A DNA stretch of 64,000 nt, from positions 15,260 through 79,259 of the forward strand of contig CBDHDC010000001.1 in assembly GCA_965261195.1 (NCBI GenBank), written 5' to 3'. Positions 25,413 through 48,814 of this stretch are shown piece by piece (position 1 is the stretch's first letter; every line of letters starts with the position of its first letter). The notes under the pieces were generated by a model. It saw only the letters and a list, made by a program, of their open reading frames with translations. It was not told where the DNA came from and did no database searches. The position numbers and the translations under genes are program-made. This DNA is from Dehalococcoidia bacterium. Its GTDB lineage: Bacteria > Chloroflexota > Dehalococcoidia > Lucifugimonadales > UBA3495.

Positions 25413-25594
25413 ACGCTCCATGACCCTCCCGCCAGAGACCCGCGCCAGTAGATGCCACTTGGCTTTGGTTTAGCCCGAATCCACCGAAAAGATGAGTGTC
25501 GCGGCGGGTTGAATGGGTAAGAAAGTGCTCCTGTGCGTCTGGGATAATGGTTTTCGAGACAGAAAACCAGCCAGAAACAAGGAGCACCCAATAG

Positions 25595-26507: not shown

Positions 26508-26745
26508 ATGAAGTTGATTGCCCTGGCCCTGGTAGGCGTCCTGATGGTGGTTACTGTCGCGTGTGGCGGGGAAGAGCCAACCCGCCACACGCCGCCGCCT
26601 CCCCAGTCGGCGCCGGTCCAAGAGGAGTACTCGCCAGAAATGAAGCAGTTCTGCGATAGGTTTGGGCGGTCGGTTGGCCAGTTGCGAGCGCAAGGTTACA
26701 GCAGTGAGGAATTGTTCCAAGCCCTGTTAGAGAAAGGATGGACTA
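26508..26745 (+). pseudogene. lipoprotein gene interrupted by the MITE/IS chain
   Basis: Signal peptide plus lipobox (MKLIALALVGVLMVVTVAC). The ORF reads straight into MITE sequence from 26746 onward. Confidence 0.55.
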
Positions 26746-26860
26746 GTACTCAGTCAACCGTGAAATCGCAGTATCTTTGGAACAGCGTAACCCCAGAGTG
26801 GTTGCCTATCGGGCCTTACCGAGGCCGCCGAACCCTTCGATTCCAAACATGACTGAACAC
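26746..26860. mobile_element. IS630-type MITE, family M1 (115 bp)
   Basis: GTACTCAGTCAACCGTGAAATCGCAG...TTCCAAACATGACTGAACAC, TA on both sides. About 90% identical to 40065-40179. Confidence 0.85.
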
Positions 26861-26862
26861 TA

Positions 26863-27008
26863 AACTAAAGCCAAGGTGGGATGTGCATTTAAGTGGCGAT
26901 GATGATCATCTGGGTTACGCCGGTGAATCCCCCTCATCCGTACTTGGAGAATGACCCGGCTCCGTCGTCTGACCCTCACCGTCTGCGCATTTCACCTTGG
27001 CTTCAGTT
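26863..27008. mobile_element. MITE, V family subtype V1 (inverted relative to 40683-40827)
   Basis: AACTAAAGCCAAGGTGGGATG...CATTTCACCTTGGCTTCAGTT, TA-flanked. The interior is the reverse complement of the other V1 copies. Confidence 0.85.
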
Positions 27009-27010
27009 TA

Positions 27011-27124
27011 GTACTCAGTCACGTCAGGAATGAAAGTTTCCGAAAGGCTCCTTGGAAGACGCGCCATGTTGACACACGAAGAAACTTCAAAAATGACCCT
27101 TGCATTCCAAACATGACTGACTAC
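27011..27124. mobile_element. IS630-type MITE, family M2 (114 bp)
   Basis: GTACTCAGTCACGTCAGGAATGAAAG...CCAAACATGACTGACTAC. About 92% identical to 35888-36001. TA-flanked. Confidence 0.85.
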
Positions 27125-27126
27125 TA

Positions 27127-27253
27127 GTACCGGTTCCAGATAGTCTTGTCGATACTGGAAAGTCACTTCCAACTGTGGATTCCAGCTTGCGCGGGAACGA
27201 CGGGCAGGTGAAACGGGTATCTGGTATAAGGCATATTCAAGTGGAAACGGTAC
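27127..27253. mobile_element. MITE family M3 (127 bp, TIR GTACCGGTTCC)
   Basis: GTACCGGTTCCAGATAG...GTGGAAACGGTAC. The reverse complement of this element is at 36004-36130. TA-flanked. Confidence 0.85.
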
Positions 27254-27255
27254 TA

Positions 27256-28474
27256 GTAGTCAGTCAATCTTGGAATCAAAGAGATAGAGACGGTGAAGTT
27301 TGGAACGGGCGTCTTGGGTGTTGAACTGCCAGTTAATGGTGGTCTGGGCGGCGTTGCGCTCCGTCACCAGGGCCTGGACTTCCCGCTGCAGCGTCTCCTC
27401 ATCGGCCAGGCGCCTCTTGAGGCAGCAGCGGGACAGCACGCTGAACTCGATCTCCGCCATGTTCAGCCAACTGCCATGCTTGGGGGTGTAGTGGAACTCC
27501 AACCGTTTCGCAATCCGCCAGGCTTCGGCCGCTGGGAACGTCTCGTACAGGGACGCCGTGCGATGGGTGTTGAGATTGTCCAGGACCACCCGTACCACCG
27601 GGACCTCCGGATAGGCTTCATCCACCAGCCAGCGCATCTGATGGGCGAAGTCCTGCATCGTGCGCCGCTGGGTCACCGCCACCTGCCGCCAACCCGCCAA
27701 CGGCTCACAGGCCATAAACAGGTTGCGCGTGCCCTCCCGCCGGTACTCGTAGTCCTGCCGCAGGGGGATCCCAGGCCGAGCCGGGAGCGCCGGCCGCGTC
27801 TCCGCCAACAATTGGGAGGAGGTCTCGTCGAAGCAGACCACCGGCCTCTGGGAGTCATAGGGTTCGGCGTACAGGTCCAGCACGTCCTCCATGTGGGCCA
27901 CGAACTCGGCGCTCACCTTGGGAATGCACCACTCCCGCTTCTGCCAGGGCTTGAGGATGTTTTTTCAAGTGCAGCCGCACTGTCTCATGGGACAGCGATG
28001 GCGCCAGCCCCAATTCCACCACTTTGCCGGCCAGCAGCCGCAGGGTCCAGTGGCCGTGGCCTTCCGGCGCCGGGCTGCAGGCCAGAGCGATCAGGTGGGC
28101 CTCCCCCCGGTCGTCCAGCTTCCGGCGCCGGTGGGCCTGGGACCGGTCCTTGAGCGCCCCGTCCACGCCATCCTCGGCGAAGCGCCGCTTGATCCGGTAC
28201 ACCGTGCCGTCAACCACGTCCAGGGCTTGGGCCACCTGGGGTTGCAGGCCAACCCTGGCCGGTCTTGATCAGGATGCGGGCCCGCGTAACCACCCGGGCA
28301 GCGCTCTTGCCAGCCCGAACCAGATGCTCCAATTGGTCCCGCTGCTCCGCAGTCAGCCGGACTCCATACTTTTCCCTGACCATACCGCCACCTCCCAGCA
28401 ACACTATCCACAGTCAGGGTAGCTGCTTCAGTCAGTCTTTCACATTACCATCTAAATCCAGTTTGACTGACTAC
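27256..28474 (-). mobile_element. IS630-family element, copy 2, full length (1219 bp) but transposase needs two frame corrections
   Basis: TIRs GTAGTCAGTCAA (27256) and TTGACTGACTAC (28474), with a TA each side inside a CTAG context. ORFs: MVREKYGVRLTAEQRDQLEHLVRAGKSAARVV (from 28383), 27855..28235, and the DDE half at 27260..27916. Frame breaks lie near 28262 and at the A6 run 27961-27966. Confidence 0.9.
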
Positions 28475-28481
28475 TAGTTTC

Positions 28482-28962
28482 ATGGCTGTCTGGCGCTACA
28501 CCGGTTACTTGATGGGCATTCCAGAGACTATCCTGTTCCGAGACGCGGAGGAAGCCCTGAGACTTCACGACATCGGGCTCATGTGTGAGCCGTCTGCCCA
28601 AAGGGAATCCATTGTCATGGCCCATGCTTTGATAAACTCGGCTCCGATAGTGGCCGGAATGAGCGATCCCAATGACCGGCGCAAGCTATCCCAGTACGCG
28701 TACCATCTTACCCGAGGACTTATCGGGGACACCCTTGCGAATCAGCTTGAGTTTCCGAAGGGATCGTCCTTTGGAGTTGTCGCCCGGTTTCGCATTGAAG
28801 AGCGGTTAAATCGAATCCTGCGTCAGCTGAGCCCGGGATATGGTCAAAAGGCCAATCTCAACAAGTTCACCGGCTTGCTCGAGACCTCCTTGGTACGACG
28901 AGGCGGGCATCAGTTACCGGCTTCCCGACCACGTATACGCCGAAGAATCCAGCCGGTGGTGA
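28482..28962 (+). pseudogene. C-terminal part of an MpaB/DUF2236-like oxygenase gene
   Basis: WRYTGYLMGIPETILFRDAEEALRLHD... resembles the mid/C-terminal part of that family. It begins at the IS630 junction. A possible 1-nt frameshift near 28895 would end it at TGA 28960-28962. Confidence 0.4.
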
Positions 28963-28974
28963 GCCAGTGTCCGG

Positions 28975-29205
28975 TATCCAGTGACCAGCGGCCAGTAGAC
29001 CGGCCGGCCGCTAACCACTGGTCACTGACGCCGCTCTCCCCTATACCCGCGGGAGAAGGGCCGGGAGTGAGGGCGAACCCTGCCCGGCGGTATGAAAGCC
29101 GGTGGTATGAAACAATGGGGGAAGAACTCTTGAGCCGGATTAAATCCGGCTCAAGAGTTCTTCCCCTCTCCCCGCGGGAGAGGGGCCGGGGGTGAGGGCG
29201 AACTC
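28975..29205. repeat. REP-like GC-rich repeats plus a 49-nt near-perfect palindrome
   Basis: Two copies of CCCGCGGGAGA(A/G)GGGCCGGG(A/G)GTGAGGGCGAAC (29034-29078 and 29163-29203). Palindrome GGGGAAGAACTCTTGAGCCGGATT-A-AATCCGGCTCAAGAGTTCTTCCCC at 29117-29166. Confidence 0.8.
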
Positions 29206-29236
29206 CCCTCTCCACTGACCACCAAGGAGGTCTGCC

Positions 29237-29620
29237 ATGGCCAGCCGTATCCTGGACACGATCGACGCACCGAGCGACCTCAGAGCGCTGAGCTACGCAG
29301 AACTGGACCAGGTGGCCCAGGAGGCGCGGGACACGATTATCTCGGTGATCACCGAGCGCGGCGGCCACCTGGCGTCGAACTTGGGCGTCGTCGAGCTTAC
29401 GCTGGCGCTGCACCGGGTTTTCGACAGCCCCAGGGACAGCCTGGTCTGGGACACCACCAACCAGACCTACACCCACAAGCTGGTGACCGGACGCCGCGAC
29501 GACTTCCAGAACATCCGGCTGGAAGGCGGCCTGTCCGGGTTCGGCGAACCCAGCGAAAGCCCCCACGACACGCTCTGCGCGGGCCACACCGGCACCGGCC
29601 TGTCCATTGCTCTTGGTTTT
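29237..29620 (+). pseudogene. dxs: diverged 5' fragment of 1-deoxy-D-xylulose-5-phosphate synthase
   Basis: GGHLASNLGVVELTLALHRVFDSPRDSLVWD..THKLVTGRRDDFQNIRLEGGLSGF..ESPHD..GHTGTGLSIALG matches the Dxs N-terminus. The conserved GHQ is replaced (TTNQ). The gene stops being Dxs-like after about 128 aa. Confidence 0.65.
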
Positions 29621-29700
29621 ACCCAGATGAAGCCGGGAGAACCCTTCGCTTTCGCGGGCCTCTGGGACTCGTGGCAGGACCCGGAGGGAGAAGACGGTGT
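29621..29700 (+). pseudogene. scrap of an SRAP (YedK/DUF159) gene fused in frame to the dxs fragment
   Basis: KPGEPFAFAGLWDSWQDPEG is the characteristic SRAP PFAFAGLWexW block. Nothing else of the gene is present. Confidence 0.35.
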
Positions 29701-29848
29701 TGAGGGCCCCGGAACTGTCGAAGAAGTGCTGGATGTTCTGGTAGACCCTGAAGAAGATGTCGGGCCTGAGTTGGTCTCCGGTGGCGTTCTGACAGATGCC
29801 GCCGTCGATCATCAGGTCGAGAGTATTCGGCGTGCGACTGTAGTACTA

Positions 29849-29995
29849 AACTAAAGCCAAGGTGAAATGTACATATCGCCAGGCCGCATTGCCGGTGGCC
29901 ACCCAGTTAGGGCCTATGGGTGATATGAGGTGATGTGGAGTCCTTTCGGTGGTCTTCAAGACCTCCGAATTGCACATCCCACCTTGGTATTGGTT
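29849..29995. mobile_element. MITE, V family subtype V2
   Basis: C-TA-AACTAAAGCCAAGGTGAAATG...CCCACCTTGGTATTGGTT-TA-G. Same subtype as 10218-10364 and 36133-36278. Confidence 0.85.
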
Positions 29996-30374
29996 TAGGC
30001 GGTCCTTGAACCCGCCCGGAGAGGGGCGCGGAGTTCGGACGAGGGTCGCGGGGTTGGGCTTGGCCTGGGATGCAGCCAAGATGGGCTGGGGCAAGCTGGC
30101 AACCGCCCCCGGCATCACCGCTTCATGGACCATGTCCGCCAAGCGGGGAATTGATCTCAGGGGCCGGGCGCAAAAATCTGCGTGGCGGCCCCTGGAAGGG
30201 GCAAACCCGGACATGTTATGTCCGGAAGATCTCTGGACAGTTCCCCGGGAAACCCGCCCGTTTGGGACATCCTGGCGCAGGAAGCACAACATGCCTAACC
30301 CCGCCTGAGATATCCCGGCAGCCAGGTTGGTAAATCATGGGGATGTCCCCAAGCATTAGTTCAGGAGCGAGAGA

Positions 30375-30908
30375 ATGTCGATCAGCAGCGTGGAAACCGC
30401 CATCCAGCAAGCCCGGTCGGTGATAATGGATTGGGCCCAGGTTGGGTTCATGGATTGGCCGGAGGACCATACCCGTTCCACCGTCATCGATCCCGTCATC
30501 ACGGCCCTGGGCTGGGATACCTCCGACCCCAGGGAGTGCCGCCCGGAGTACCGGCGCTCCCGTGGCGATGAAGCTGCCGGCAGGGTCGACTACGCCCTGT
30601 TCGGCACTCCCGATCTCGACGCCATCGATAACGGCACAGTGGCGCCGGATGTCATCATCGAGGTGAAGGGCCTGATCGTCGCGCTGGACCAGCACGTCGA
30701 GCAGATGCAGCGCTACGTCGAAGCGGCCCCCCGGATGCGGAAGGGCGTGGCGGTGCTGACCAACGGGTTGGGGTGGTGGCTGTACGACCTCGACCGGAGC
30801 GGAGCCTTCCCAGAGAAACGCATCGACCCCATCCACCCCATGGCGGTCGATGCGAGGGAAGCAGCCCTGATTTTGAACGAACGGCTTGACCGGCGGAGGT
30901 TCGGATGA
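30375..30908 (+). CDS. stand-alone HsdR_N-like PD-(D/E)xK domain protein
   Basis: EDHTRSTVIDPVITALGWD ... GRVDYALF ... PDVIIEVKG ... GVAVLTNGLGWWLY follows the type I R-subunit N-terminal nuclease-fold pattern. Confidence 0.6.
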   Translation: MSISSVETAIQQARSVIMDWAQVGFMDWPEDHTRSTVIDPVITALGWDTSDPRECRPEYRRSRGDEAAGRVDYALFGTPDLDAIDNGTVAPDVIIEVKGLIVALDQHVEQMQRYVEAAPRMRKGVAVLTNGLGWWLYDLDRSGAFPEKRIDPIHPMAVDAREAALILNERLDRRRFG

Positions 30909-31025
30909 GCTCTGAGGCACATCAACCGAGCGCGGAACCCCGAGGACCGGCCTTCAGGATGCCCCTCGGAGCTGGAGAAGAACATCCGGGGAGACCGGAA
31001 CGTCAACTACGTCTGCCACCCGCAG

Positions 31026-31268
31026 GTGATCCGGCTGATGGCCAACGCCTGGGCCCAGTGGCGCTTCGACCGGAAGATGGACGGGGCCGCGCTGGCCGCC
31101 GGCATCGGGGCGGCCCAACTGAGAACCGCCGACTCCGAGAACGTCCTCTACCAGGACTGGGGGATCATCAGCCACGGGCGGAACACCAAGTTCCAGGGCG
31201 TCAGGCACGAGAACTGGGAGAAGGCCACCACGGAAATCCTGCGGCTCGCGGGAGCGCAGGGACACTGA
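31026..31268 (+). CDS. hypothetical small protein (start uncertain; frame open from 30909)
   Basis: Listed ORF in a different frame from the spurious first part of 30905..32002. No family recognised. Confidence 0.35.
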   Translation: MIRLMANAWAQWRFDRKMDGAALAAGIGAAQLRTADSENVLYQDWGIISHGRNTKFQGVRHENWEKATTEILRLAGAQGH

Positions 31269-31285
31269 AGGAGAGAGGAACCAAC

Positions 31286-32002
31286 ATGACGATGCTGGAA
31301 ATGGCCGACTGGCCCGGCACCCCCGGACTGGAGCGCCTCGCGTCGGCCGCGCAGTTCATCGCCGAGAGCCTCAAGCTCGAGGGGGAAATGGCCGACTGGC
31401 TCGGCACCCCCGGGCTGGAGCCCCTCGCGTCGGCCGTGCAGCTCTTCAACGAGAGCCTCAAGCACGAGGAGGACAACCCGCAATACCCGCCGGAACCAGA
31501 CGAGCTGAACACCCTGCGCCAGGATGCCCGGATGCTGCTGGGCTACAAGGACACTCTTCTCTTCAGCATGGTAACCCACTCGGAGCTGGCCGAGATGGCG
31601 GAGGCTGGGCAGATCCAGGAGGGCATGGACATGGTGCCCGTCGTGGCCCGCGGTTCCGACGAGCAGTTCATCGGGATGCTCATTGATCTGGGCGAGCCCG
31701 AGGAGGACGACCCGGAGGACGGGGAGTACGGCATCATGGCCACCCGGCTCTACCGGGACGCCGGGTGGGTTGGGTTGAACGAGCAACTCCCCTTGTGTCG
31801 GGGCCTGGAAATCCACATCTTCAGCAGGAAGGGCCGCCCCGAGGAGCCCGCGGGGATCCTCGCGATCAGGCAGGGCAGGATGGATGGTCCACCCGGCGTC
31901 CCCGAGCCCCGGGGTGAGCTGAACGGGGTCATCCGGGAGGTGATGCGGTGGCACGGCGCCACGAGCTTCGCCTGGCATGAGCCGGAGGGTCTGGAGGAAT
32001 AG
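31286..32002 (+). CDS. unknown-family protein, paralogue 1 of 3 (contains an 87-bp tandem duplication)
   Basis: ATG 31286 follows GAAGGAGAGAGG. Shares MADWPGTPG, RQDARMLLG, EQFIGMLIDL, LYRDAGWVGLNEQLP and a C-terminal ...VMRWHG with 48190..48762 and 43871..44542. Confidence 0.7.
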   Translation: MTMLEMADWPGTPGLERLASAAQFIAESLKLEGEMADWLGTPGLEPLASAVQLFNESLKHEEDNPQYPPEPDELNTLRQDARMLLGYKDTLLFSMVTHSELAEMAEAGQIQEGMDMVPVVARGSDEQFIGMLIDLGEPEEDDPEDGEYGIMATRLYRDAGWVGLNEQLPLCRGLEIHIFSRKGRPEEPAGILAIRQGRMDGPPGVPEPRGELNGVIREVMRWHGATSFAWHEPEGLEE

Positions 32003-32039
32003 GAAGCCGGCGTAGCTGTTGCTGGCCAGCAACAGCTGC

Positions 32040-32291
32040 GCCGGCGCCAACCACACTCACTTCACCGAACTGCTGCGGGAACGGGAGGGCATCGACCTGA
32101 GCTGTCCCATGGTGCGCCGCATCCTGACCAAGGCAGGCATCGGAAGTCCTCGCAGCCGCCGTTCCCAGCAACACCGGTTCCGGCGCCGGAGCATGCCCCA
32201 GGAGGGCATGCTGGTGCAGATCGACGGCAGCAACCATCCCTGGCTGGAGGACTTGGGACAGAGTACCAGGGACGGACCGGACCCAGGGTAA
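32040..32291 (+). pseudogene. internal fragment of an ISNCY-type transposase
   Basis: NHTHFTELLREREGIDLSCPMVRRILTKAGIGSPRSRRSQQHRFRRRSMPQEGMLVQIDGSNHPWLED, with no DDE core following. Confidence 0.55.
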
Positions 32292-32701
32292 ACCACCGTC
32301 CTGGAGGCCCCAGGTTGCCGATTCCCGGGCTGCCAGCCATCCAAGCGAAGGGGTTGTGGCGCCCATTATCAGCCCAAAGCCCCTGAAATGGCCGCCTGGG
32401 GCGAAAACCCCCGTTTCCCGCCATCCCCTCCGGATGGGATGTTCCACGCTGGCTCGAGGTGGTCGGAAAAGGAATATCGGGTCAATTCCAAGTTGCTATT
32501 GACAACCGCCAGGCTATGCGCGAACCGGCCTTCCCAGATCCTGAACCCCTAAGGCTTGGCCGTCGGCCTACCGCATAATGCCTAACCAGTCCACGTAGGG
32601 TTGGAAGTTGACAACCCAGCTGCTTGAGAGAGCCCTTGACGATCCTCCCTCCAACGGGGATGCCCCTGTGCTGCCCCACCACTGAGATCCGCGCCTTGAC
32701 G

Positions 32702-33394
32702 ATGGCCGACCTCGACAGCCACACTGCCCTCACGGACTGGACCGACCGGCCACCAGGTCCAGCGGAGGCGGACATCACGACCTTCAACCCAGTCCGGCGC
32801 CACATCACCAGGGGCCGTGGGGAAACCAGGCTCTGCGACGGCCGTGCCGCCGGCGGGGCGGACATTTCCACCAGCAACCTGGAGGCCCTGCGGCAGTCCC
32901 GCGCCGAGGCGACCCTCTGCCCCGTCTGCCAGCAGAACTCCGGGATCTCTCCCCACATCCTCAGGCCCAGACGCCCCTCCGGAGGCAGCAGAAACCTGGC
33001 CTGCCTCTACACCACGCCGGTGCTGGACGACTTCGACAACATCCGCAACTGCCCGCGCTGCCGGAAGACCCCCGGCGACCGCACCTGCCGGGACTGGGAC
33101 GAAGCCCGCAAGGGGGTGAGGGTCCTGCACCAGGAGGCCAGGCGCATTGCCAGGGAGGTCACGGATATCCCGGAAGCCACCGGAGGCTGCACCGCCACCA
33201 TCTACGAGTTCCTGGACGGATCGGTGGGCTACTTCGCCTTCGGAGCCCCGCCCTGGCAGGAGGCCGGAGAGATCACCGGCTCGGTCCGTGAACAGGCCCT
33301 GCATGTCCTGGAAAGCCGAGGGGTTCCAGGTGGAAAGGCAACCTGGACCACGGGAGCCGCACGGCCCAATCAGGGTGATCTGACAGGAAGGTGA
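32702..33394 (+). CDS. hypothetical protein with two CxxC pairs
   Basis: Listed ORF. The internal start MADLDSHTAL is preferred. CPVCQ and CPRCRK suggest a zinc ribbon. No family recognised. Confidence 0.4.
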   Translation: MADLDSHTALTDWTDRPPGPAEADITTFNPVRRHITRGRGETRLCDGRAAGGADISTSNLEALRQSRAEATLCPVCQQNSGISPHILRPRRPSGGSRNLACLYTTPVLDDFDNIRNCPRCRKTPGDRTCRDWDEARKGVRVLHQEARRIAREVTDIPEATGGCTATIYEFLDGSVGYFAFGAPPWQEAGEITGSVREQALHVLESRGVPGGKATWTTGAARPNQGDLTGR

Positions 33395-33505
33395 TGGCCG
33401 GTCAAGCCCCTCAGGGCTTTGTGGACAAGGACCTGGGAGGCGCCTCCTGCCACCGCGATGACCGGGGGAAGCTCGGGCTTGGTGCCACAGAATCGTCCAT
33501 CCACG

Positions 33506-33715
33506 GGTTCACCCCCACCCGCGTGGGGAAAGCGCCAACTGGGCCGTCGCCAACGACCAGAAGTTCGGTTCACACCCACCCGCGTGGGGAAAGCGACAGG
33601 GACGTTTAACAGCCTGATATTCGAGACGGTTCACACCCACCCGCGTGGGGAAGGCTCTACCGGCGGTGCCACCAGTCTATAATTCTGGGTTCACCTCCGC
33701 GCAAGCGGGGCCGTC
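33506..33715 (+). CRISPR. mini-CRISPR array 1: three good repeats plus one degenerate, type I-E-like repeat
   Basis: GGTTCAC(C/A)CCCACCCGCGTGGGGAA(A/G)GC at 33506, 33567 and 33628 (61-bp period, 32-33-nt unique spacers). A degenerate fourth repeat is at 33688. Stem CCCCAC/GTGGGG. Confidence 0.85.
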
Positions 33716-33907
33716 CTTTCCTTTGCCCTCGCAGCGGGCTAACCCTCGTCCAGGAGCCTGCGGACGCCGCGCTCCCTAACCCAGGCCCTGAAGACCTGGT
33801 AGAGGTCGCGGTCCTCTTGATGCTCGGACGTGGCCATGCTCTCGAGCCAGATCTCGAGGACGCGGGCGGCCGACAGGCAGGCGTCGCCGGAGAATCGTCC
33901 ATCCGTG

Positions 33908-33935
33908 GGTTCACCCCCAACCGCAAGTGCCAGTT
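33908..33935 (+). repeat. isolated degenerate CRISPR repeat with duplicated upstream flank
   Basis: AGAATCGTCCATCC(GT)GGGTTCACCCCCAACCGC at 33891 repeats the flank plus repeat start seen at 33489 (AGAATCGTCCATCC(AC)GGGTTCACCCCCACCCGC). Confidence 0.6.
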
Positions 33936-33962
33936 GTTCCAATAGTCCGGCGGACAACTGCC

Positions 33963-34364
33963 TTAGCTCTCGTCTGCCGGTGTCGCCGATTCGTCCTCAA
34001 CAACGTACCCGACTATGGTGCCTTCTGCGTAAGCAGAAAGCTGGATAACATTCCTGTCGGGAAACAAGCTACCTGGGTAGTGCATCACCTTCCCGTTGAC
34101 CTTCTCAACGTAGTCTCCCCATTGGTACGTGGTGCCATTGATTTCCACTTCCTCGACCACACAGTAATAGGCTTCCGAAGTTTTGCCCGTGTTGTTTCGC
34201 CTAACTTTGGAAAACCCATGAACGAATGTCATGTGGGAAGACATTTCCCAATCGTCGAACACCCCTTTGAGTGGTCGGGCATTGGGAAAGGCTCTGGCGA
34301 TAGCCGGGGGCATCGTATCCTTCTTGATTTTAATGTTCTCTCCGCACAACATGCATATCATCAT
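33963..34364 (-). CDS. hypothetical protein (133 aa), low-GC gene between the two CRISPR arrays
   Basis: GGGAG lies 4 nt before ATGATG at 34364. Visibly AT-richer codon usage than neighbouring genes. MMICMLCGENIKIKKD...; no family recognised. Confidence 0.6.
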   Translation of the reverse strand: MMICMLCGENIKIKKDTMPPAIARAFPNARPLKGVFDDWEMSSHMTFVHGFSKVRRNNTGKTSEAYYCVVEEVEINGTTYQWGDYVEKVNGKVMHYPGSLFPDRNVIQLSAYAEGTIVGYVVEDESATPADES

Positions 34365-34431
34365 CTAACTCCCTTAACTGCGCCGGTTGTTCCAAAACTC
34401 GCCTTGATTCGGGACTTTTGGAGCAAAGCCG

Positions 34432-34642
34432 GTTCACCCCCACCCGCGTGGGGAAAGCGCCAGCAGGATGTAAACATCGGTCATGCCCATGGGTTCACCC
34501 CCACCCGCGTGGGGAAAGCTCCTGCAACCGATGCGGCAAGCGTTTCATTTCGGGTTCACCCCCACCCGCGTGGGGAAAGCTAACCAGCCTTGCCCATGCG
34601 TCCTCTTGCTCCTGGTTCACCCCGACCCGTCCGGCACTTCAT
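34432..34642 (+). CRISPR. mini-CRISPR array 2: three perfect repeats plus one degenerate
   Basis: GGTTCACCCCCACCCGCGTGGGGAAAGC at 34432, 34493 and 34554 with 33-nt unique spacers. Degenerate terminal repeat at 34615-34642. Confidence 0.9.
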
Positions 34643-34783
34643 AACCTATCCCAGGACCGGCGCTGCAGGACCTGGGAATGAACCCTTCACCTGAATAGCT
34701 TCTCCAATGGGGCGGCCGGCGTCCTTCGTTCGAGACCGCGGCCCCGTCCGCCCGGTCCGACACTAAATTCAAGGAGAAGCAAC

Positions 34784-35452
34784 GTGCAAATCTACCCACC
34801 TTTCCCATCCTGTCGTGAGGACACGCCGAAGCGACAGGCGGAAAAACAGATTTACCAGGCCCTCGCGGCCTCCGACCTTGAGGGTTACGTCCTCTACGAG
34901 GTCAAGCCCATCTCAAGCGCACCGCAGTTGGACTTCGCCATCTGGATCGTCGGGATCGGAATCTTCGGAGTCCAGGTCAAGGGCGGCAAGTATGTCGTCA
35001 TCGAAGGGCGGTGGTACCTGATCACCGACCAGGGGCGGCACCCCAGGGAGTCCCCCGTGCCGAGCACTTGGGACGCCGCCATGGCCATCCGCGACGTAGT
35101 CCAGGAGCAGCTCCACCAGAGCATCTTCGTAACCCCGGTCCTGGCCATGCCCAACATGGAGCCCAACGAGGACATCGAGGCCCTCGCCGGGTCCAGGAAC
35201 GTCGCGATGCACTGGGGAGACCCTTCCCAGATCGTCGACCACCTCGTCCAGTTGGCCATCGACCGGAAGGTCTACATCACGCCCACGCCGGCCAGCATCG
35301 CCGCCCAGGTGCAGCTGGTCGAGCCCGGGCTGGTCCTCCCGCGCCAGGCTCCGGCCGGGCTGGACGCCCAGGAGCTCCACATCCATGTCGAAAACCTGCA
35401 CATCCACGTCCCCCAGGGCGGACTGTCGGTAGTGGAGGTGAAGGCGGCCTAG
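34784..35452 (+). CDS. NERD (nuclease-related domain) protein
   Basis: GTG start after AAGGAG. AEKQIYQALAASDLEGYVLYEVKPISSAPQLDFAIWIVGIGIFGVQVKGG fits the NERD pattern (E..vy..L....y.v......e.DfvI....GifviEvK). Confidence 0.65.
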   Translation: MQIYPPFPSCREDTPKRQAEKQIYQALAASDLEGYVLYEVKPISSAPQLDFAIWIVGIGIFGVQVKGGKYVVIEGRWYLITDQGRHPRESPVPSTWDAAMAIRDVVQEQLHQSIFVTPVLAMPNMEPNEDIEALAGSRNVAMHWGDPSQIVDHLVQLAIDRKVYITPTPASIAAQVQLVEPGLVLPRQAPAGLDAQELHIHVENLHIHVPQGGLSVVEVKAA

Positions 35453-35783
35453 CACCCAGCCACAGCCCCCGGTCGACCTGGTCGAGGACGGCGGCCAGGA
35501 GACCCCGGGGCTGTGGTCCTCGACATCATCCAGTCCCGGAGCGGTCCAACCCGGGACAGGCCTTCATTCATGGGCCGGGAGGCCGCTCTCCCCGCAGGGG
35601 ACGAGGCGGATGTGGAAGCAAGGAGTCCGGACCCACGCCGAAGACCGCCGGACCGGCCCGGGACCGGGGCATTCCCGGACGAAACGCGCCCCGGGCACCC
35701 CCACGCGCCTGAAGGCCTTCTAGCGGAACCTGGAGCGATTTCCAAGAGGGCCTTGCATCTGCAGCCGCATGAAGCGGATCCTA

Positions 35784-35885
35784 AACTAAAGCCAAGGTGG
35801 AATGCGCAGAATGAGAGGGCTTCACTGGCGCAACCAAGCCAATCTTCATCGCCCATCGAATGTACATCCCACCTTAGCTTTAGTT
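35784..35885. mobile_element. MITE, V family subtype V3 (102 bp)
   Basis: AACTAAAGCCAAGGTGGAATG...GTACATCCCACCTTAGCTTTAGTT, TA-flanked. The interior is unrelated to V1/V2. Confidence 0.8.
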
Positions 35886-35887
35886 TA

Positions 35888-36001
35888 GTAGTCAGTCACG
35901 TCAGAAATGAAAGTTTCCGAAAGGCTCCTTGGAAGACGCGCCATGTTGATACAAGAAGAAACTTCAAAAATGACCCTTCTATTCCAAATATGACTGACTG
36001 C
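35888..36001. mobile_element. IS630-type MITE, family M2, second copy
   Basis: GTAGTCAGTCACGTCAGAAATGAAAG...CCAAATATGACTGACTGC. Same orientation as 27011-27124. Confidence 0.85.
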
Positions 36002-36003
36002 TA

Positions 36004-36130
36004 GTACCGTTTCCACTTGAATATGCCTTATACCAGATACCCGTTTCACCTGCCCGTCGTTCCCGCGCAAGCTGGAATCCACAGTTGGAAGTGACTTTCC
36101 AGTATCGACAAGACTATCTGGAACCGGTAC
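36004..36130. mobile_element. MITE family M3, second copy (inverted relative to 27127-27253)
   Basis: GTACCGTTTCCACTTGAATATGCC...CTATCTGGAACCGGTAC is the reverse complement of the first copy. TA-flanked. Confidence 0.85.
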
Positions 36131-36132
36131 TA

Positions 36133-36278
36133 AACTAAAGCCAAGGTGAAATGTGCATATCGCTAGACCGCACTGTCGGTGCCCACCCAGTTGGGGCCTA
36201 AGGGTGATATGAGTTGCCGTGGAGTCCTTTCGGTCGTCGTCAAGACCCCGAAATGCACATCCCACCTTGGTATTGGTT
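36133..36278. mobile_element. MITE, V family subtype V2
   Basis: AACTAAAGCCAAGGTGAAATGTGCATATCGCTAGACCGCACTGTCGG...CCCACCTTGGTATTGGTT, TA-flanked. Confidence 0.85.
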
Positions 36279-36869
36279 TAGCTATGCTGGAACCCCGCGG
36301 GAAGTCCCGGCCAGAACGCAACCTCAACCCGGATCCCCACGCGCTGGCCTAATTACCAGAGTCCGAGGAACGATCCCCATCGGTCCAGACCCGCCGGACT
36401 CAGCCCGTGTGGAAACGCCGGGTGCAGCCCGAGGATCCCCGCGCAATGCGTCCCGATCCAGACCTGCCGGACACCGTACCAGGAGCAGGGGGAATCGCCC
36501 CTGCGGGGGGTTTTGAGACAGCCGGAAGGGCCAGAACGCCGCCGGAACGTAATCGACATCAAACCTACTTAAATCATACTCATTTTCTCTAACAACCAGG
36601 GGGGGCGTGGGCAGGGGGCGCGCGCCGCCGGAACGAAACGCACATCCCCTGAGCACAGGCCCCGAACAAAAAAACCGCAATCCGAACATCCTCTCTAAAA
36701 TTACATCAGCCGTGCTGGGAAACCCCGGATTCCATGCTCCCGCAGGGGGGCCGGAATGAAACCAACAACAACTGTGCTTGGAACTACCCCCCTTTGGCCA
36801 GCCCCCCCGGCAGGGCATTTCGGCAGTCAGTCCGGACGGCTTTTAGAGCATTTTGAGACTGGCCGGGGG

Positions 36870-37735
36870 CGCCCTCGCTCCACAGACGAGGGCGCCCCCG
36901 GCGGGACCATCCTGGCCTGGAGCGCCTGCCAGAATGCCGTCGCGTCCGCCCTCTCCATCCGGGGCAACTGGAACAACCTGCCGCAGTATCTCAGAGAGTG
37001 GTTGTACGACGGCGGCGACCGGGCGCGTCCCTGCCGGACCGAACTGGACGTAAATCTCTGCTTCGCGCCGTTGCTCAGGTGGGTCCTTGCGTGGTGGCGG
37101 TCCGGCCGGCTGGCGCTGGCGGTTGACCCCACGTTGAAAGGGGACGACACCGCCGCTATCGTCATCAGCGTGGTCTACCGGGGTTGCGCGATTCCCGTGG
37201 CCTGGCGCATCCTGCGCGCCAACCAGCGCGGGGCTTGGATGGACCCGATAGTGGAACTGCTGCAGGCCCTGGCCCCGGCGGTCCCCAGGGAAATGACCGT
37301 GGTGGCGCTGTGCGACCGGGGCCTGGCCAGTCCAAAATTGTGGAAACAGATCCTGGCTCAGAGCCGGCCCCGGCGACGGCCGGGGGCTGGCATCCCTGCA
37401 TGAGGTATCCGAAAAACGTCACTTTCTGCGCCGAGGGCGGTCGGCGGCTGCCCGCCCGCGCCTTCGTTTCCCGTCCGGATACCGCGTGGACCGGGAGCGG
37501 GACCGCTTTCGGCGCAGCCGCCGCAAAACGCCGTTGCACCCTGCTGGCGGTCTGGTACGTTGAACAGGAGGAGCCGTGGATCATCCTGACCGGCCTTCCG
37601 CCGGACGAAGTTGGGGTGAGTTGGTACGCAATCCGCTTCTGGATCGAGTTGGGGTTCAAGGCGATCAAGAGCCTGGGTTGGCAATGGCAAAAGACCCGCA
37701 GGACTGACCCGGCGCGGATTTCGCGGCATTACCAG
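36870..37735 (+). pseudogene. IS4/IS701-like DDE transposase, frameshifted and 3'-truncated
   Basis: LALAVDPTLKGDDTAAIVISVVYRGCAIPVAWRILRANQRGAWMDP...VVALCDRGLASPKLWKQI (listed 36756..37403) continues in another frame as GWHPCMRYPKNV...CTLLAVWYVEQEEPWIILTGLPPDEVGVSWYAIRFWIELGFKAIKSLGWQWQKTRRTDPARISRH, then ends abruptly. Confidence 0.6.
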
Positions 37736-38312
37736 GCTCGTCAAGTACCTGGGCGACCCGCCCACCTACTACGTGTACACCCTGCAGGGAAACATCACCA
37801 TCGGCGCCATCGACAGGATCTACAGCCAGTCCAAGTTCCGCGAGATGGTGGGCGCGGCCACCAACATCGTGATCCCGAAGGTGGCCGGAGCGGCCTGGGA
37901 GAAACGCATCCAGGCGATCCTGAGGCTCGCCGAGGACGTGGATGTCGGCGATGCCAGCCACCCCGTCCAGGAGACCCGGACCTGGATCATGGACTACCTG
38001 ATCGAGCGGTACGTCCGGGACGAGGAGGAGAGGGAGAAGGCCGCCCTCGTCCGGTACCCCTACATGAAGGACGGACTAATCAGGATCTTCCTCGAGGACT
38101 TCAGCAAGTGGCTCGACGTGAACTTCGGAAAGAAGCTGGACAGCCACGAGCTGGCGCGGAAGATGCGGAGGATTGGGGGCGAGCCCGACCACATCAACCT
38201 CACCATCGGGGGCGCCCGGACCAGCCGGAACTGCTGGAAACTCCCGGACAGCTTCCATCCCCCACAGCGGGACCAGGAGGAAAATGAGTCACGGGGAGAC
38301 GCGCCTGAGTAG
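37736..38312 (+). pseudogene. C-terminal fragment of a replication (primase/helicase-type) gene
   Basis: The frame is open from the transposase junction: GITRLVKYLGDPPTYYVYTLQGN...FSKWLDVNFGKKLDSHELARKMRRIGGEPDHINLTIGGARTSRNCWKLP. The family assignment is an inference from the C-terminal pattern only. Confidence 0.35.
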
Positions 38313-38360
38313 CGGGAAGAACCCGGGAAAAACCCCGATCTGAGCGTGAAAAGAAAAAGT

Positions 38361-38612
38361 GAGTAATAGTACACGCGCGCGAAAATATAAAAACGTTTTT
38401 ATAAAAAAACTCCATAACTCCGTAACTCCGTAACTCAAATCTGGGATTTCGTGCTCAAAATAGCCCTTTTTCTGAGTTACGGGGAAGGTCTGCGCCGTAA
38501 CTACCGCAACTCACCCCTTTATATACGCGAGCAGACAATTTGGCCTTGAATGAATGAATAAATTCTCCCCTCCCGCGAGCGGGCATTTATATAGGGGAGA
38601 AAACCCCGGGAA
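38361..38612. promoter_or_regulatory. 252-bp AT-rich iteron block, copy A (ori- or arm-site-like)
   Basis: About 92% identical to 48815-49066. Contains the palindrome ATAAAAACGTTTTTAT, tandem (C)GTAACTC iterons in two pairs plus an inverted copy (GAGTTAC), and TATATA-containing inverted repeats. Confidence 0.7.
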
Positions 38613-38844
38613 CGGCCAAGCCCCGGGGGAAGCGGCAGAGCCGGCCGTGGACCCCACGGAGAGAGAGCCGGAGAATACGCCACAGTGGGTTAAACAGACC
38701 GCAGGGCCGCAGAAAGGACTGTGAGAGCCACAACGAGCAACAGGACGCGCTACGGCGATTCTGGAGCGATGGAGACTCAGGACAGACGGAGACCCAGGAC
38801 ATACTGGGGCGGGAGCGCCCCGGCGTGGAGGAAGTGGAACCAGG

Positions 38845-39042
38845 ATGCAGGAAACCGAGATAACTACCAACGAGTTCAGGGTGGTGGGGCCTCCGGGCTG
38901 CGGAAAAACGACCTGGCTGGGAGACCGGGTGGACGAGGTCGTGGAGGCCACCCGGGCATGCATCCCACGTCCAACCACCGGTCAACGGGCCAACGGGTTG
39001 GAGTCGGTCCTGGCCGAAGATACAATCTGGCCAGCCATCTAG
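38845..39042 (+). pseudogene. N-terminal stub of a P-loop ATPase/helicase gene
   Basis: MQETEITTNEFRVVGPPGCGKTTWLGDRVDEVVEA. The sequence is non-homologous-looking afterwards, with a stop at 65 aa. Confidence 0.35.
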
Positions 39043-39054
39043 CCGGAGACGCTC

Positions 39055-39259
39055 ATGACTGACTGCCCCCTCCAGGACGCCAAGAACAAATTCAGCGCCG
39101 TGGTCGACGCCGCCCTGGCTGGCAGTGGACGAGTACGAACGCCTCTGCCGCTTGGAGAAGGCCAACGCCCCCACGCTGGCGGAGCTGTTGCTGGATATTC
39201 CGCAGGACGACCAGGAATTCGAGCGCATTCCCCTGCCGGCCCGGCCCCTGGACCTGTGA
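39055..39259 (+). pseudogene. vapB: Phd/VapB-type antitoxin with an internal out-of-frame deletion
   Basis: N-terminus LQDAKNKFSAVVDAALAG. The C-terminus is only readable in another frame (DEYERLCRLEKANAPTLAELLLDIPQDDQEFERIPLPARPLDL*). The central beta-strand region is missing. Confidence 0.6.
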
Positions 39260-39686
39260 CGTTTCTGCTGGACACACCGGCACCCTGTCGGCGCAGCGGA
39301 GACAGGACCGGCATCCCGAGGCCGCCCGATGGCTGGCCGCTCAGCAAACGGCCGACCTGCACCTCAGCGTGGTAACCGTGGCCGAGATTCAGAGGGGCAT
39401 CGCCCAGCAGGAGCGGAGCAACCCCAGCTTTGCCCTCGAGCTGGCCGTCTGGCTGTCCAGGGTGCTCACCTGGTACGGCGACCAGATCCTCGCGTTAGAT
39501 GTGCCCACGGCGCAGCGATGGGGAAGGCTCTCCGCTACCCTGGGGCACGACGGCGTGGACCTGATGGTCGCCACCACGGCCCTGGAACATGGCCTCACAG
39601 TGGTGACCCGCAACGTCAAGGACTTCATTCCTACTGGGGCCAGGGTATTCAACCCCTTCGGTGGTCAGGAAGCGACTCCGGCATGA
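39256..39686 (+). pseudogene. vapC: PIN-domain VapC toxin with a frameshift near 39270
   Basis: GTGA overlap with the antitoxin stop. VTFLLDT, then a frame change to ...LSAQRRQDRHPEAARWLAAQQTADLHLSVVTVAEIQRGI...VDLMVATTALEHGLTVVTRNVKDF. Confidence 0.65.
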
Positions 39687-39853
39687 CAAAGGCCATTGCC
39701 CTGACGGCACCGCCGGCCGCCTGGCCGGAGCTGCCCATCCCCCAGTCCGTGCAGATCATCGCCGTCGACGCCGAGGGCAAACCCACCCTTGACCTGGCGT
39801 CGCATTACCCCGGCCCCTCAATCGCCACCCCCGACGAGGCCTATAGCATCTGA
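39683..39853 (+). CDS. small hypothetical ORF (56 aa), ATGA-coupled to the vapC stop
   Basis: ATG 39683 overlaps TGA 39684-39686. MTKAIALTAPPAAWPELPIPQSVQIIAVDAEGKPTLDL... Confidence 0.3.
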   Translation: MTKAIALTAPPAAWPELPIPQSVQIIAVDAEGKPTLDLASHYPGPSIATPDEAYSI

Positions 39854-40011
39854 GGTAACCTGGATCTTCTGGCCGATCAGAGGATTGAAGCCTGCGCGGT
39901 CACTGGACGGGCTATCTATGCTAGGCTCAAAGCAATTACCTACAGGAGGGCATCGGCAACTGCTCCAGCACCCGCACCACTAAACTCCTCCCACCAATCC
40001 TCCGATATGTT

Positions 40012-40046
40012 CATATTTAGATATATCATTAGTTAAACATTAAGAT
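40012..40046 (-). promoter_or_regulatory. AT-rich about 30-bp operator-like motif, copy a (inverted)
   Basis: The reverse complement ATCTTAATGTTTAACTAATGATATATCTAAATATG matches 43153-43187 at about 28/35 positions. Confidence 0.5.
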
Positions 40047-40064
40047 GTCAATATAAAGCAGCTA

Positions 40065-40179
40065 GTAGTCAGTCAACCGTGAAATCGCAGTATCCTTGGA
40101 ACAGCGTAACCCCAGAGTGATTGTCCAACCGGTCTTGCCGGGGCCACTGAACCCTTTGATTCCAAACATGACTGAGTAC
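40065..40179. mobile_element. IS630-type MITE, family M1, second copy
   Basis: GTAGTCAGTCAACCGTGAAATCGCAG...TTCCAAACATGACTGAGTAC, TA on both sides within CTAG. Confidence 0.85.
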
Positions 40180-40299
40180 TAGCTGAGCGCGTCTCGCCAT
40201 ATCAAAGAACACAGGATTTTCTCAGGTTACTCGTTGGGCAGACCCACTCAGGAAGCCGATTCAGCGACCATTGCTGCACTTCAGGTTTGAGGAGCAGCA

Positions 40300-40650
40300 A
40301 TGGAGTACCTGGAGGTGAACCGAGTGGAAACTACGGAAGTGATCCGGCTCTACCGGTCGGGAACGGGAGTTTCCCGGGATACGGAGCGAAAGTCCATCGC
40401 GGCAGCGAAGGAGGCGGGGATGGCCTGGAATGAGCCGGTTCCCACCGAGGAGCAGTTGAGCAGGCTGGCGGGAATCAGCGAGCCAGCCCCCGGGTCTACT
40501 AGATATCCTACGCATCGCTGCAGCGGTTCTTCCTGAGCCGCCGCCAGTTGCGCTGCAGTCTGAGCACGGTCCGGATGGAAGCGACCGCTCGGGGAGAGGT
40601 GGCGGAACTGGACTGCGGCTGTCCGGGCCGGTCATCAGCGACCATCGCAT
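40300..40650 (+). pseudogene. 5' fragment of an IS21-family istA transposase, frameshifted, then cut by a MITE
   Basis: HTH region MEYLEVNRVETTEVIRLYRSGTGVSRDTERKSIAAAKEAG...PTEEQLSRLAG. It continues in another frame (SLQRFFLSRRQLRCSLSTVRMEATARGEVAELDCG) up to the V1 MITE at 40683. Confidence 0.5.
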
Positions 40651-40682
40651 TTCAAATCACCAGATGGTCATCGAAGGCTCTA

Positions 40683-40827
40683 AACCAAAGCCAAGGTGAA
40701 ATGCGCAGATGGTGAGGGTCAGACGACGGAGCCGGGGCATTCTCCAAGGACGGATGAAGGGATTCACCGGCGCAACCCAGCTGATCATCATCGCCACTTA
40801 AATGTACATCCCACCTTGGCTTTAGTT
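40683..40827. mobile_element. MITE, V family subtype V1
   Basis: C-TA-AACCAAAGCCAAGGTGAAATG...GTACATCCCACCTTGGCTTTAGTT-TA-G. Confidence 0.85.
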
Positions 40828-40954
40828 TAGCTACCAAGAGCGTCTGTCCCCGGACCGGGCCCGGATAGGCCCGAAAGGAGTCACACCCAGGGAGTAACCC
40901 GATATTAGGCTGAATCGAGCACAGGATGGACTGATACTCGTGAAAATTGACAAG

Positions 40955-48762: not shown

Positions 48763-48814
48763 GCACGGAATTGCTCGTGGTACGACTCGACAGCAGGCCC
48801 AGAAAAAAATATTT

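Follow-up and report, generated by a model that had tools for sequence, protein, structure and literature searches.

What are two short CRISPR-like arrays doing in a Dehalococcoidia genome fragment that carries no cas genes of its own? Within the window, by which we mean the whole 64-kb stretch of DNA that was analysed, they could be the instrument of a mobile element, a working orphan system or what is left of an ordinary CRISPR-Cas locus. The features on which the argument rests are as follows, in window coordinates.

33484..33505, minus strand: 22-bp flank, copy 1 of a duplicated array edge; read on the minus strand, it comes directly after the final repeat of array 1.
33506..33715, minus strand: array 1, in the order Rvar (33715-33688), S3 (32 nt), R, S2, R, S1, R (33533-33506).
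33716..33885, minus strand: repeat-free segment of 170 bp between the lone half-repeat and array 1, possibly a gene fragment.
33886..33935, minus strand: flank copy 2 (33886-33907) and lone partial repeat (33908-33935), repeat family D2.
33963..34361, minus strand: ORF132, coding for 132 aa, protein family uncharacterised; Shine-Dalgarno-like AAGGGAG upstream.
34362..34430, minus strand: 69-bp region from the last repeat of array 2 to ORF132, with the motif GGCTTTGCTCCAAAAGTCC.
34431..34641, minus strand: array 2, in the order Rdeg (34641-34614), S6, R, S5, R, S4, R (34458-34431).

Inspection of the sequence, a repeat finder and a pattern search agreed on two mini-arrays (33506-33715 and 34431-34641), each with three spacers. 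Both are built on the same 28-nt consensus repeat, GGTTCACCCCCACCCGCGTGGGGAAAGC, with a period of 61 bp (60 bp in the final unit of array 1), and the six spacers are all different, each 33 nt in length except S3 (32 nt). A preliminary description of this DNA had given the two arrays, the six unique spacers and the 61-bp period correctly, but its coordinates for array 2 were off by one. In the pattern search, the repeat was matched six times in the window and not once in shuffled sequence; all of these matches (6/6) fell inside the two arrays, leaving no full repeat elsewhere in the 64 kb, and no spacer had a second copy in the window. A dispersed REP-like repeat was considered and rejected, since every copy stands in an array with spacers. 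The repeats of array 1 at 33506, 33567 and 33628 carry 0, 1 and 2 mismatches, respectively, and the fourth (Rvar, 33688-33715) is divergent, with a hairpin still predicted at −11.8 kcal/mol. In array 2, the repeats at 34431, 34492 and 34553 are perfect, and the fourth (Rdeg, 34614-34641), which faces the leader side, is degenerate, keeping only its final ~15 nt, with no hairpin on folding.

On the minus strand the repeat reads GCTTT-CCCCAC-GCGG-GTGGGG-GTGAACC (fold −12.6 kcal/mol) and shows type I-E geometry, with a short 5' flank, a G:C stem-loop and a 3' tail of 7-8 nt, the future 5' handle; most members of the repeat family end in AACCG. CRISPR-I of E. coli K-12 is alike in its 28-29-nt repeat (GAGTT-CCCCGC-GCCA-GCGGGG-ATAAACCG) and 32-33-nt spacers, as well as in the 5-nt 5' flank, the 6-7-bp G:C stem, the tetraloop and the 7-8-nt tail ending in AACC(G). 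Further type I-E arrays with this architecture are those of Thermus thermophilus and CRISPR4 of Streptococcus thermophilus, whose repeat GTTTTTCCCGCACACGCGGGGGTGATCC has the same 28/33 split and 7-nt 5' handle as the window. The spacing, the repeat geometry and the link to type I-E cas genes in related metagenome contigs, where the identical repeat lies behind such genes, all place the repeat in the type I-E class, in line with the earlier I-E-like reading, and both arrays are genuine CRISPR arrays of that class. The window differs from known type I-E arrays in having no leader, cas gene or acquisition, in its truncated leader-side repeat and in the ORF that splits the array.

The degenerate repeats on the right had previously been taken to mean that both arrays are transcribed from left to right, a claim that is contradicted by the cas-linked arrays and by E. 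coli K-12. In every cas-linked locus of the repeat family the leader is followed by GCTTTCCCCACGCGGGTGGGGGTGAACC, the leader adjoining the GCTTT... end in L026/L031, L033, L032, L037, L003, L012 and L001, and the junction is conserved, with the leader ending in ..AGG and the repeat beginning with G. Loci with 100% identical Cas6e and leader (L026, L033 and L032/L034) differ in their cas6e-proximal spacers and carry the mutated repeat at the far end from cas6e, and the cas1-cas2-leader-array loci of L012 and L001 have the same repeat orientation. E. coli K-12, checked directly, has the same geometry (5-nt 5' flank, stem and 8-nt tail AUAAACCG). Since the cas-linked arrays of the family place the leader at the GCTTT end, the crRNA strand is the minus strand. 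The left-to-right polarity had initially drawn support from the right-hand degenerate repeats, a mutation gradient in array 1, an extra spacer in L018 relative to L017 and irregular units in L003; it was dropped because arrays with identical Cas6e and leader vary next to cas6e and decay distally, and because the cas1-cas2-leader-array loci agree with them. On this strand, the two degenerate repeats lie at the leader-facing and not the trailer end, one as a truncation scar and the other as a divergent repeat. The rule that a degenerate repeat marks the trailer can assign the wrong strand in truncated arrays.

The block as a whole, from array 2 through ORF132 and the lone half-repeat to array 1, was found in nine other contigs at 93-96% identity; it occurs in eight samples and at least three different genomic contexts. 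In L026/L031, the genes cas3-cse1-cse2-cas7-cas5-cas6e are followed by a 93-nt, AT-rich leader and then by a 60-spacer array of the identical repeat, and a block of the window type sits at the distal end of this array. In L026, the final repeats of the main array are followed by 66 nt, ORF132, the 3' half-repeat with its 22-bp flank, a divergent repeat, S3, S2 and onward, with 92.8% identity to positions 33506-34629 of the window over 1144 nt; the motif GGCTTTGCTCCAAAAGTCC is also found after array ends in L026. Because this block forms the distal end of a full cas-linked array in the sister contig, what the window carries is a remnant rather than a dedicated mini-array; with the intact parent architecture visible there, the remnant can be assigned to the trailer end of the parent locus. 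We consider it probable, at roughly 0.7, that the locus in the window is what survives of the distal (trailer) end of a type I-E CRISPR-Cas locus, a vestige with neither cas genes nor leader.

Two side observations concern the relatives themselves. In L003, cas6e (PF08798) is followed directly by an array of about 23 copies of the identical 28-nt repeat, whose first, cas6e-proximal units are irregular. There are also type I-E effector loci that lack cas1-cas2 and yet have wholly different arrays between strains with identical Cas6e.

The duplicated array edge reported earlier is real, in that the lone partial repeat at 33908 comes with a second copy of the 22-bp flank of array 1 (GCCGGAGAATCGTCCATCCGTG ahead of the lone repeat versus GCCACAGAATCGTCCATCCACG ahead of array 1; family D2, 39 nt, 87%). 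The last 17 nt of the lone repeat remain (GCGGTTGGGGGTGAACC on the minus strand), and no hairpin is predicted in it. Flank copy 1 is kept in L017-L020, L027 and L028, and flank copy 2 with the lone half-repeat is present in all of the related contigs (9/9). Over the 170-bp segment, the gene callers placed an ORF of 63-72 aa (33739-33957, minus strand), and the 63-aa product of L026 is 95% identical to that of the window (tblastn).

Comparison between strains separated the two arrays. Spacers S1-S3 are the same apart from SNPs in L017-L020, L027 and L028, and S3 and S2 are found in L026. The spacers of array 1 are constant wherever they are seen, in seven other contigs from seven samples, and its repeats carry private, strain-specific point mutations; fixed spacers combined with drifting repeats are the behaviour of unselected, non-acquiring DNA. 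In array 2, S4 and S5 are common to L027 and L028, and L017-L020 have other spacers. The synteny of L017-L020 with the window stops exactly inside array 2, with different genes beyond, and the differences between strains in array 2 coincide with this break rather than with ordered additions. Relative to L017, L018 has one extra spacer, adjoining ORF132.

The earlier statement that the 64 kb hold no recognisable cas gene was upheld by three methods. Pfam found none in the window (about 75 ORFs), PADLOC run on 141 ORFs gave no Cas protein among the best 25 families listed, and tblastn of Cas3, Cse1, Cse2, Cas7, Cas5 and Cas6e of the sister locus and E. coli Cas1 and Cas2 against the window gave nearly all matches at E > 0.09. 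One Cas6e match (25% identity, E = 0.001) lay inside a UvrD_C/zinc-ribbon ORF and was judged spurious. A cas operon immediately outside the window, the case that the preliminary description had raised against its own reading, was absent from the adjoining 8.6 kb on the right and 7.8 kb on the left, as read from contigs that match the window ends at 100% and 99.98% identity, with ~10 kb of the 90.7-kb source contig lying outside this view. The leader motif of the cas-linked arrays, CTCAATAATCATTATCGGTGAAATAGG, had 0 matches in the window at ≤3 mismatches, a scan of 33200-34900 on both strands for sigma-70 consensus sites only gave no promoter-like site, and the interval from Rdeg to a divergent gene is just 142 bp of GC-rich DNA. 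The adjacent cas operon, leader and signs of leader-end acquisition that mark a complete, autonomous CRISPR-Cas locus are absent, and with neither leader nor cas1-cas2 the arrays are unable to take up spacers here.

Target searches gave no match for any spacer. BLAST searches of 50,697 records of phages and 72,556 of plasmids returned chance matches alone (E ≥ 3), the 24-nt cores of all six spacers had 0 matches in IMG/VR, and neither the window nor the related loci contained a match, the best in the window (13/14 nt) being at chance level. The proposal that the spacers target competitors found no support in any of these sets. Because all of the target searches were negative, no PAM could be derived.

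Under the vestige reading, everything upstream of the block would have been replaced in the lineage of the window, with the breakpoint within a repeat, so that only its last ~15 nt would survive at 34614-34641. Array 2 would be the three remaining spacers of the main array, and array 1 an older three-spacer array behind ORF132. The locus probably lacks a function at present. Any crRNA would be made from the minus strand and carry a 33-nt guide between a 7-nt 5' handle (GUGAACC) and a 21-nt 3' hairpin handle, and interference would be feasible only in trans, with another promoter and a same-repeat I-E Cascade elsewhere in the cell; a cognate I-E cas locus may lie in trans elsewhere in the host genome. 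Orphan or degenerate arrays left after cas loss are known, for example, in E. coli and Listeria, and the window resembles them in its short arrays, the repeat of its relatives, the lack of adjacent cas genes, the fixed spacers and the drifting repeats, but differs in that the intact parent is directly visible in a sister contig.

Some observations speak against a vestige. The perfect repeats of array 2 and the hairpin of Rvar could reflect continued selection for processing by Cas6e, and retention in at least three contexts and eight samples is more persistence than pure junk predicts. In addition, the spacers adjoining ORF132 differ between strains despite a 100% identical ORF132, and this variability makes a simple trailer remnant insufficient, repeat-mediated deletions or exchanges being needed as well.

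The perfect and hairpin-forming repeats and the persistence of the block across many samples and contexts would also be expected of functional orphan arrays, transcribed from the minus strand, possibly together with ORF132, supplied with Cas6e/Cascade in trans and providing immunity through S1-S5. The same population contains type I-E effector loci that have the identical repeat but no cas1/cas2, and L026 (cas-linked) and L018 (the orphan version) even come from the same sample (ERZ25069191). However, neither a leader nor a promoter-like site was found, array 1 repeats drift between strains, no spacer has a protospacer in the collections searched, and the cas locus is known from sister contigs and not from the same genome. 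Rdeg, having no hairpin, is not cleavable by Cas6e, and S6 would consequently lack a proper 5' end. We regard functional orphan arrays as possible, though unlikely.

ORF132 runs in the same direction as both arrays, splits the array block and has a GC content of 50%, compared with 64-68% in the DNA on either side; 19-bp imperfect direct repeats flank it (33929-33947 and 34382-34400; repeat family D7). An exact-sequence cluster look-up, for which starts were chosen by Shine-Dalgarno guidance, found the exact protein on 7 contigs. Against L017-L020 there are 0 differences in 468 nt, whereas the neighbouring ORF is 94% identical, and the ORF132 of L026 has 99% amino-acid identity. The remote family comprises 17 proteins. 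No match was found in Pfam or PHROGs, a word-indexed homology search returned its own cluster alone, and IMG/VR held no relatives of the family. An MSA-based AlphaFold model (pLDDT 82.9) had no fold match in PDB or BFVD, and a single-sequence model (pLDDT 41) was useless. A bolder version of the functional reading holds that the remnant is kept because it works: a single minus-strand transcript would span the arrays and ORF132 and be processed in trans by the I-E effector loci that lack cas1/cas2, and ORF132 would be a new CRISPR accessory, regulator or anti-CRISPR, spread with array ends by repeat-mediated recombination. We consider this doubtful and quite improbable.

The preliminary description had instead proposed mini-arrays of a plasmid- or phage-like element that hijack host Cas proteins against competing mobile elements. 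The decayed mosaic setting that it described was confirmed: two copies of IS630 and truncated genes stand beside ParA and Rep-like genes and numerous genes for defence. In keeping with such an element are two ParA genes, an HTH_36+DnaA_N Rep-like gene, AbiE, IS630 and a resolvase fragment, as are the 99.98-100% identity of parts of the window to contigs of 62 and 87 kb with names ending in _c (probably circular) and a phage contig (L006) in which five repeats of this repeat family form an array adjoining terS. Mini-CRISPR arrays and solitary repeat units carried by viruses and plasmids have been described in archaeal viruses and phages, and the window is like them in having 1-4 spacers and no cas genes in DNA rich in mobile genes; such mini-arrays usually keep a leader-like promoter and spacers against related elements, but here neither a leader nor a target was found, and the block descends from a cas-linked array. 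Moreover, the link from the arrays to ParA and Rep (at 41-51 kb of the window) comes from one low-coverage assembly and is broken in another assembly of the same sample, in which window positions 26913-40463, with the arrays, is a separate linear contig without plasmid hallmark genes and ParA/Rep are on another contig. Window positions 28-40 kb had no match in the plasmid and phage collections (megablast), the Rep-like protein had none in PLSDB (tblastn), and Rfam and tRNA scans of the window found nothing. With the block homologous to the distal end of a cas-linked array and no spacer matching mobile elements in three collections, we find a mobile mini-array very unlikely; this is probably ordinary CRISPR decay, with no evidence of a mobile-element weapon. 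A CRISPR-derived regulator or decoy (creA/CreR-like, or solitary repeats acting as RNA anti-CRISPR), perhaps controlling or protecting ORF132, is barely credible: the degenerate repeats do retain exactly the part that encodes the 5' handle, around a co-directional and unusually conserved ORF132, but spacer complementarity to promoter regions in the window is at chance (best 13/14 nt) with no creA-like target found, known creTA/CreR modules adjoin a cas operon and this locus does not, the lone repeat has no hairpin and the ORF132 family has no IMG/VR relatives.

Overall, the vestige reading makes the decay of a CRISPR-Cas locus cleanly visible in natural populations, with an intact parent, several cas-less derivatives and a break inside a repeat. 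The importance of the locus would be greater if the orphan arrays are used in trans, and ORF132, with its odd conservation, low GC, position within the arrays and predicted fold without a match, would raise it further if it acts on CRISPR immunity.

Two short arrays that share one 28-nt repeat (plus-strand form, GGTTCACCCCCACCCGCGTGGGGAAAGC) were located in the window, together with a lone partial repeat and a 132-aa ORF (ORF132) that lies between them:

33506, 33567 and 33628: repeats of array 1, with 0, 1 and 2 mismatches, respectively
33688-33715: fourth repeat of array 1, divergent
33908-33935: lone partial repeat, preceded by a 22-bp copy of the array 1 flank (both in repeat family D2)
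33963-34361, minus strand: ORF132, 132-aa protein, embedded between the arrays
34431, 34492 and 34553: the three perfect repeats of array 2
34614-34641: fourth repeat of array 2, degenerate

The six spacers are all different, and each is 33 nt in length except the third (32 nt), with a period of 61 bp. No further copy of the full repeat was detected elsewhere in the 64 kb by pattern search, and the shuffled control sequence gave zero matches. The repeats, the spacers and the copied flank confirm the two mini-arrays and the duplicated array edge of the preliminary description, although its positions for array 2 were shifted by one. An identical repeat was recovered from the Dehalococcoidia MAG L003 in a scan of one genome per species; there, a 23-repeat array begins 95 bp past a gene matching Pfam CRISPR_assoc (Cas6e; E = 5e-66). 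Metagenome and viral scans yielded a dozen more arrays with close variants of the repeat. These arrays exclude a dispersed REP family as the source of the repeats and support the type I-E assignment.

ORF132 is also present on other contigs. Four of these, from four samples (L017-L020), align to window positions 32624-34579 at ~95% identity and carry array 1 with the same three spacers (S1-S3), the lone half-repeat, ORF132 and the first array 2 repeat. Three short contigs (L027, L028 and L029) share part of the block: ORF132, the half-repeat and array 1 or at least its start; in L027 and L028, the array 2 spacers S5 and S4 also adjoin ORF132. On a 70-kb contig (L026/L031), where ORF132 is 99% identical, a single strand carries IS elements, cas3, cse1, cse2, cas7, cas5, cas6e, a 93-nt leader and 60 spacers. 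The last repeat of that array has a 1-nt insertion and is separated by 66 nt from ORF132, after which come the half-repeat with its 22-bp flank, the divergent repeat known from the window, S3, S2, one further spacer and a closing repeat. From this gene order, and from 92.8% identity over 1144 nt between window 33506-34629 and L026, we infer that what the window shows as two arrays with a duplicated edge is the distal end of a complete I-E locus.

The rest of such a locus is missing. The leader motif of the cas-linked arrays is absent from the window, and Cas proteins were found neither by Pfam (~75 window ORFs), nor among the top 25 families listed by PADLOC (141 window ORFs), nor by tblastn with Cas3, Cse1, Cse2, Cas7, Cas5 and Cas6e of the sister locus and E. 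coli Cas1 and Cas2, bearing out the claim that the 64 kb are cas-less. The sole low-E tblastn match, to Cas6e (E = 0.001, 25% identity), lies inside a UvrD_C/zinc-ribbon ORF and was judged spurious. Immediately outside the window, no cas operon or cas gene was present within 8.6 kb to the right or 7.8 kb to the left, as read from contigs that match the window ends at 100% and 99.98% identity. Read on the minus strand, array 2 opens with a repeat that retains only its last ~15 nt and has no hairpin; the opening repeat of array 1 is divergent but still folds. Synteny with L017-L020 stops inside array 2; past that point the window carries, on the opposite strand, a gene for a 222-aa protein, and L017-L020 carry genes for a 183-aa protein and an HD-domain protein. 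The truncated repeat, the synteny break and the missing cas genes and leader fit a replacement through breaks or exchanges at repeats, in which the cas operon and its leader would have been replaced along with most of the array. The 222-aa gene (34784-35452) has no Pfam match and is NERD-like by eye; its 40%-identical, equal-length homologue in another Dehalococcoidia MAG (L004, 3040-3708) lies 2 kb away from a mini-array that has this repeat and a single spacer.

Left-to-right transcription had been proposed for both arrays, and the opposite strand is indicated. The base preceding GGTTCAC is C in most members of the repeat family, whose reverse strand reads G(C/T/G)TT(T/C)CCCCACGCGGGTGGGGGTGAACCG, with a 5-nt flank, a six-pair G:C stem plus tetraloop, and a tail of 8 nt whose last bases are AACCG. 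In the E. coli K-12 reference, read with cas2, an AT-rich leader precedes GAGTTCCCCGCGCCAGCGGGGATAAACCG, and the far-end repeats are decayed in their 3' halves. Two related loci (L012 and L001) show the same geometry: cas1 and cas2 are followed by a short leader, beyond which the repeat runs in this sense. In L026, L033 and L032/L034, Cas6e and the 93-nt leader are 100% identical, yet the leader-adjacent spacers are different in each, and the repeat that carries mutations lies farthest from cas6e. The leader/repeat junction ..AGG|G is common to L026, L003, L033, L037, L012 and L001. The leader-side geometry of the cas-linked loci and of E. coli K-12 points to the GCTTT...GTGAACC strand as the transcribed one, which is the minus strand in the window. 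The expected crRNA has a 7-nt handle (GUGAACC), a 33-nt guide and a 21-nt hairpin handle, presumably as in S. thermophilus CRISPR4. In L003 (1419-1710), the spacers of the first four leader-side units are irregular in length (68, 40, 38 and 32 nt), and the first repeat is immediately followed by a degenerate one, an arrangement that the established polarity does not explain.

I-E loci with this repeat (L031 3153-10705, L037 3114-10705 and L032 1048-8600) are ordered cas3-cse1-cse2-cas7-cas5-cas6e-leader-array, and neither cas1 nor cas2 lies within 10 kb. Since L026, L033 and L032 nevertheless have no spacer in common, adaptation must be supplied from elsewhere or the arrays swapped wholesale. 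In L006 (IMGVR_UViG_3300045413_000294, 1030-13050), a 5-repeat array of the same family directly follows a phage structural module (tape measure, tail tube, capsid, protease, portal, TerL and TerS), being either phage-borne or a host array abutted by a prophage. In L008 (Ga0007796_10075030, 53-860), a ~790-bp cassette bounded by a 12-bp direct repeat (AGCGGACACGGT) occupies a spacer/repeat junction of a same-family array and holds two overlapping small ORFs (124 aa and ~95 aa) in a toxin-antitoxin-like layout.

The array 1 spacers are identical in all seven of the other contigs showing this array (7/7), and its repeats carry strain-specific point changes. Because the spacers are fixed while the repeats vary by strain, array 1 looks like non-acquiring, weakly constrained DNA. 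Array 2 has perfect repeats, and its spacers vary with the lineage: the window has S4-S6, L018-L020 have Sa and Sb, and L017 has only Sb. No cas-linked array among the loci fetched shares any of them. We read these differences as different surviving subsets or repeat-mediated exchanges; array 2 may also have been recently active, prior to the loss of the cas genes. A search for sigma-70-like promoters at the arrays was negative on both strands. The idea that the spacers target competing elements was unsupported: there were no second copies in the window (0/6), no matches in the fetched loci (0/6), only chance matches among 50,697 phage and 72,556 plasmid records, and no exact match of the 24-nt cores in IMG/VR. 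Uncultured targets may be missing from the collections searched.

ORF132 has a Shine-Dalgarno-like site and 50% GC, against 64-68% around it. Its region shows 0 differences over 468 nt relative to L017-L020, against 94% identity in the neighbouring ORF, and strains identical in ORF132 DNA differ by 4-6% in adjoining DNA, which suggests recent spread beyond conservation alone. A search of 1.84 billion representatives returned an uncharacterised family of 17 proteins (E <= 1e-3) with the motifs CxLC, HMAFxHGF, AExYYxVVDE and FGDxVE. The MSA-based model is confident (pLDDT 82.9, pTM 0.71); searches of the PDB and of predicted viral structures (BFVD) gave no similar fold, and IMG/VR gave no relative. 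We regard ORF132 as a passenger gene that inserted close to the end of the array.

The window itself is a mosaic. Metabolic genes lie in its first 17 kb. Besides two copies of IS630 and truncated fragments of DXP synthase and HsdR, it carries a type IIG restriction-modification/DrmMI-like gene, two genes for ParA, a Rep-like gene (HTH_36+DnaA_N), AbiEi/AbiEii, and DUF499, DUF1156 and AAA_21 genes. Its ends match 62- and 87-kb contigs with names ending in _c, a suffix that probably denotes circular, and in another assembly of the same sample it is split over at least five contigs.

17650-18306 and 27260-27916: IS630 (DDE_3) copies
38349-38623 and 48802-49078: other internal repeats
near 5961-6042, 22725-26913, 40463-40831 and 55866-58430: assembly junctions

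The IS630 copies and internal repeats coincide with the points at which the other assembly breaks up the window. The 90.7-kb (90,703-bp) source contig, to which exact-sequence look-ups assign the window's proteins, may combine related elements as a mosaic or chimera. The IS630, ParA and Rep-like genes would be compatible with the proposed mobile backbone, but in the other assembly the array segment (26913-40463) forms a linear contig of its own, 13.5 kb long and without plasmid hallmark genes, and the Rep-like protein has no relative in PLSDB. The window is also defence-dense (18771-22793, 54399-56179 and 57394-63996), with the type IIG restriction-modification/DrmMI-like protein (1340 aa), AbiEi/AbiEii, and a cluster of DUF499, a 195-aa protein, AAA_21 and a DUF1156-like methylase (PADLOC: Hma, PDC-M07A, HEC-01A and AriA).

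Overall, the two arrays are genuine type I-E CRISPR arrays and an ordinary remnant, cas-less and leaderless, with the minus strand as the one that would be read. There was no evidence for a mobile-element weapon; the arrays are what is left of a I-E locus, with spacers lacking a mobile-element match in the collections searched. The preliminary description correctly spotted CRISPR arrays but proposed the opposite strand for their reading.
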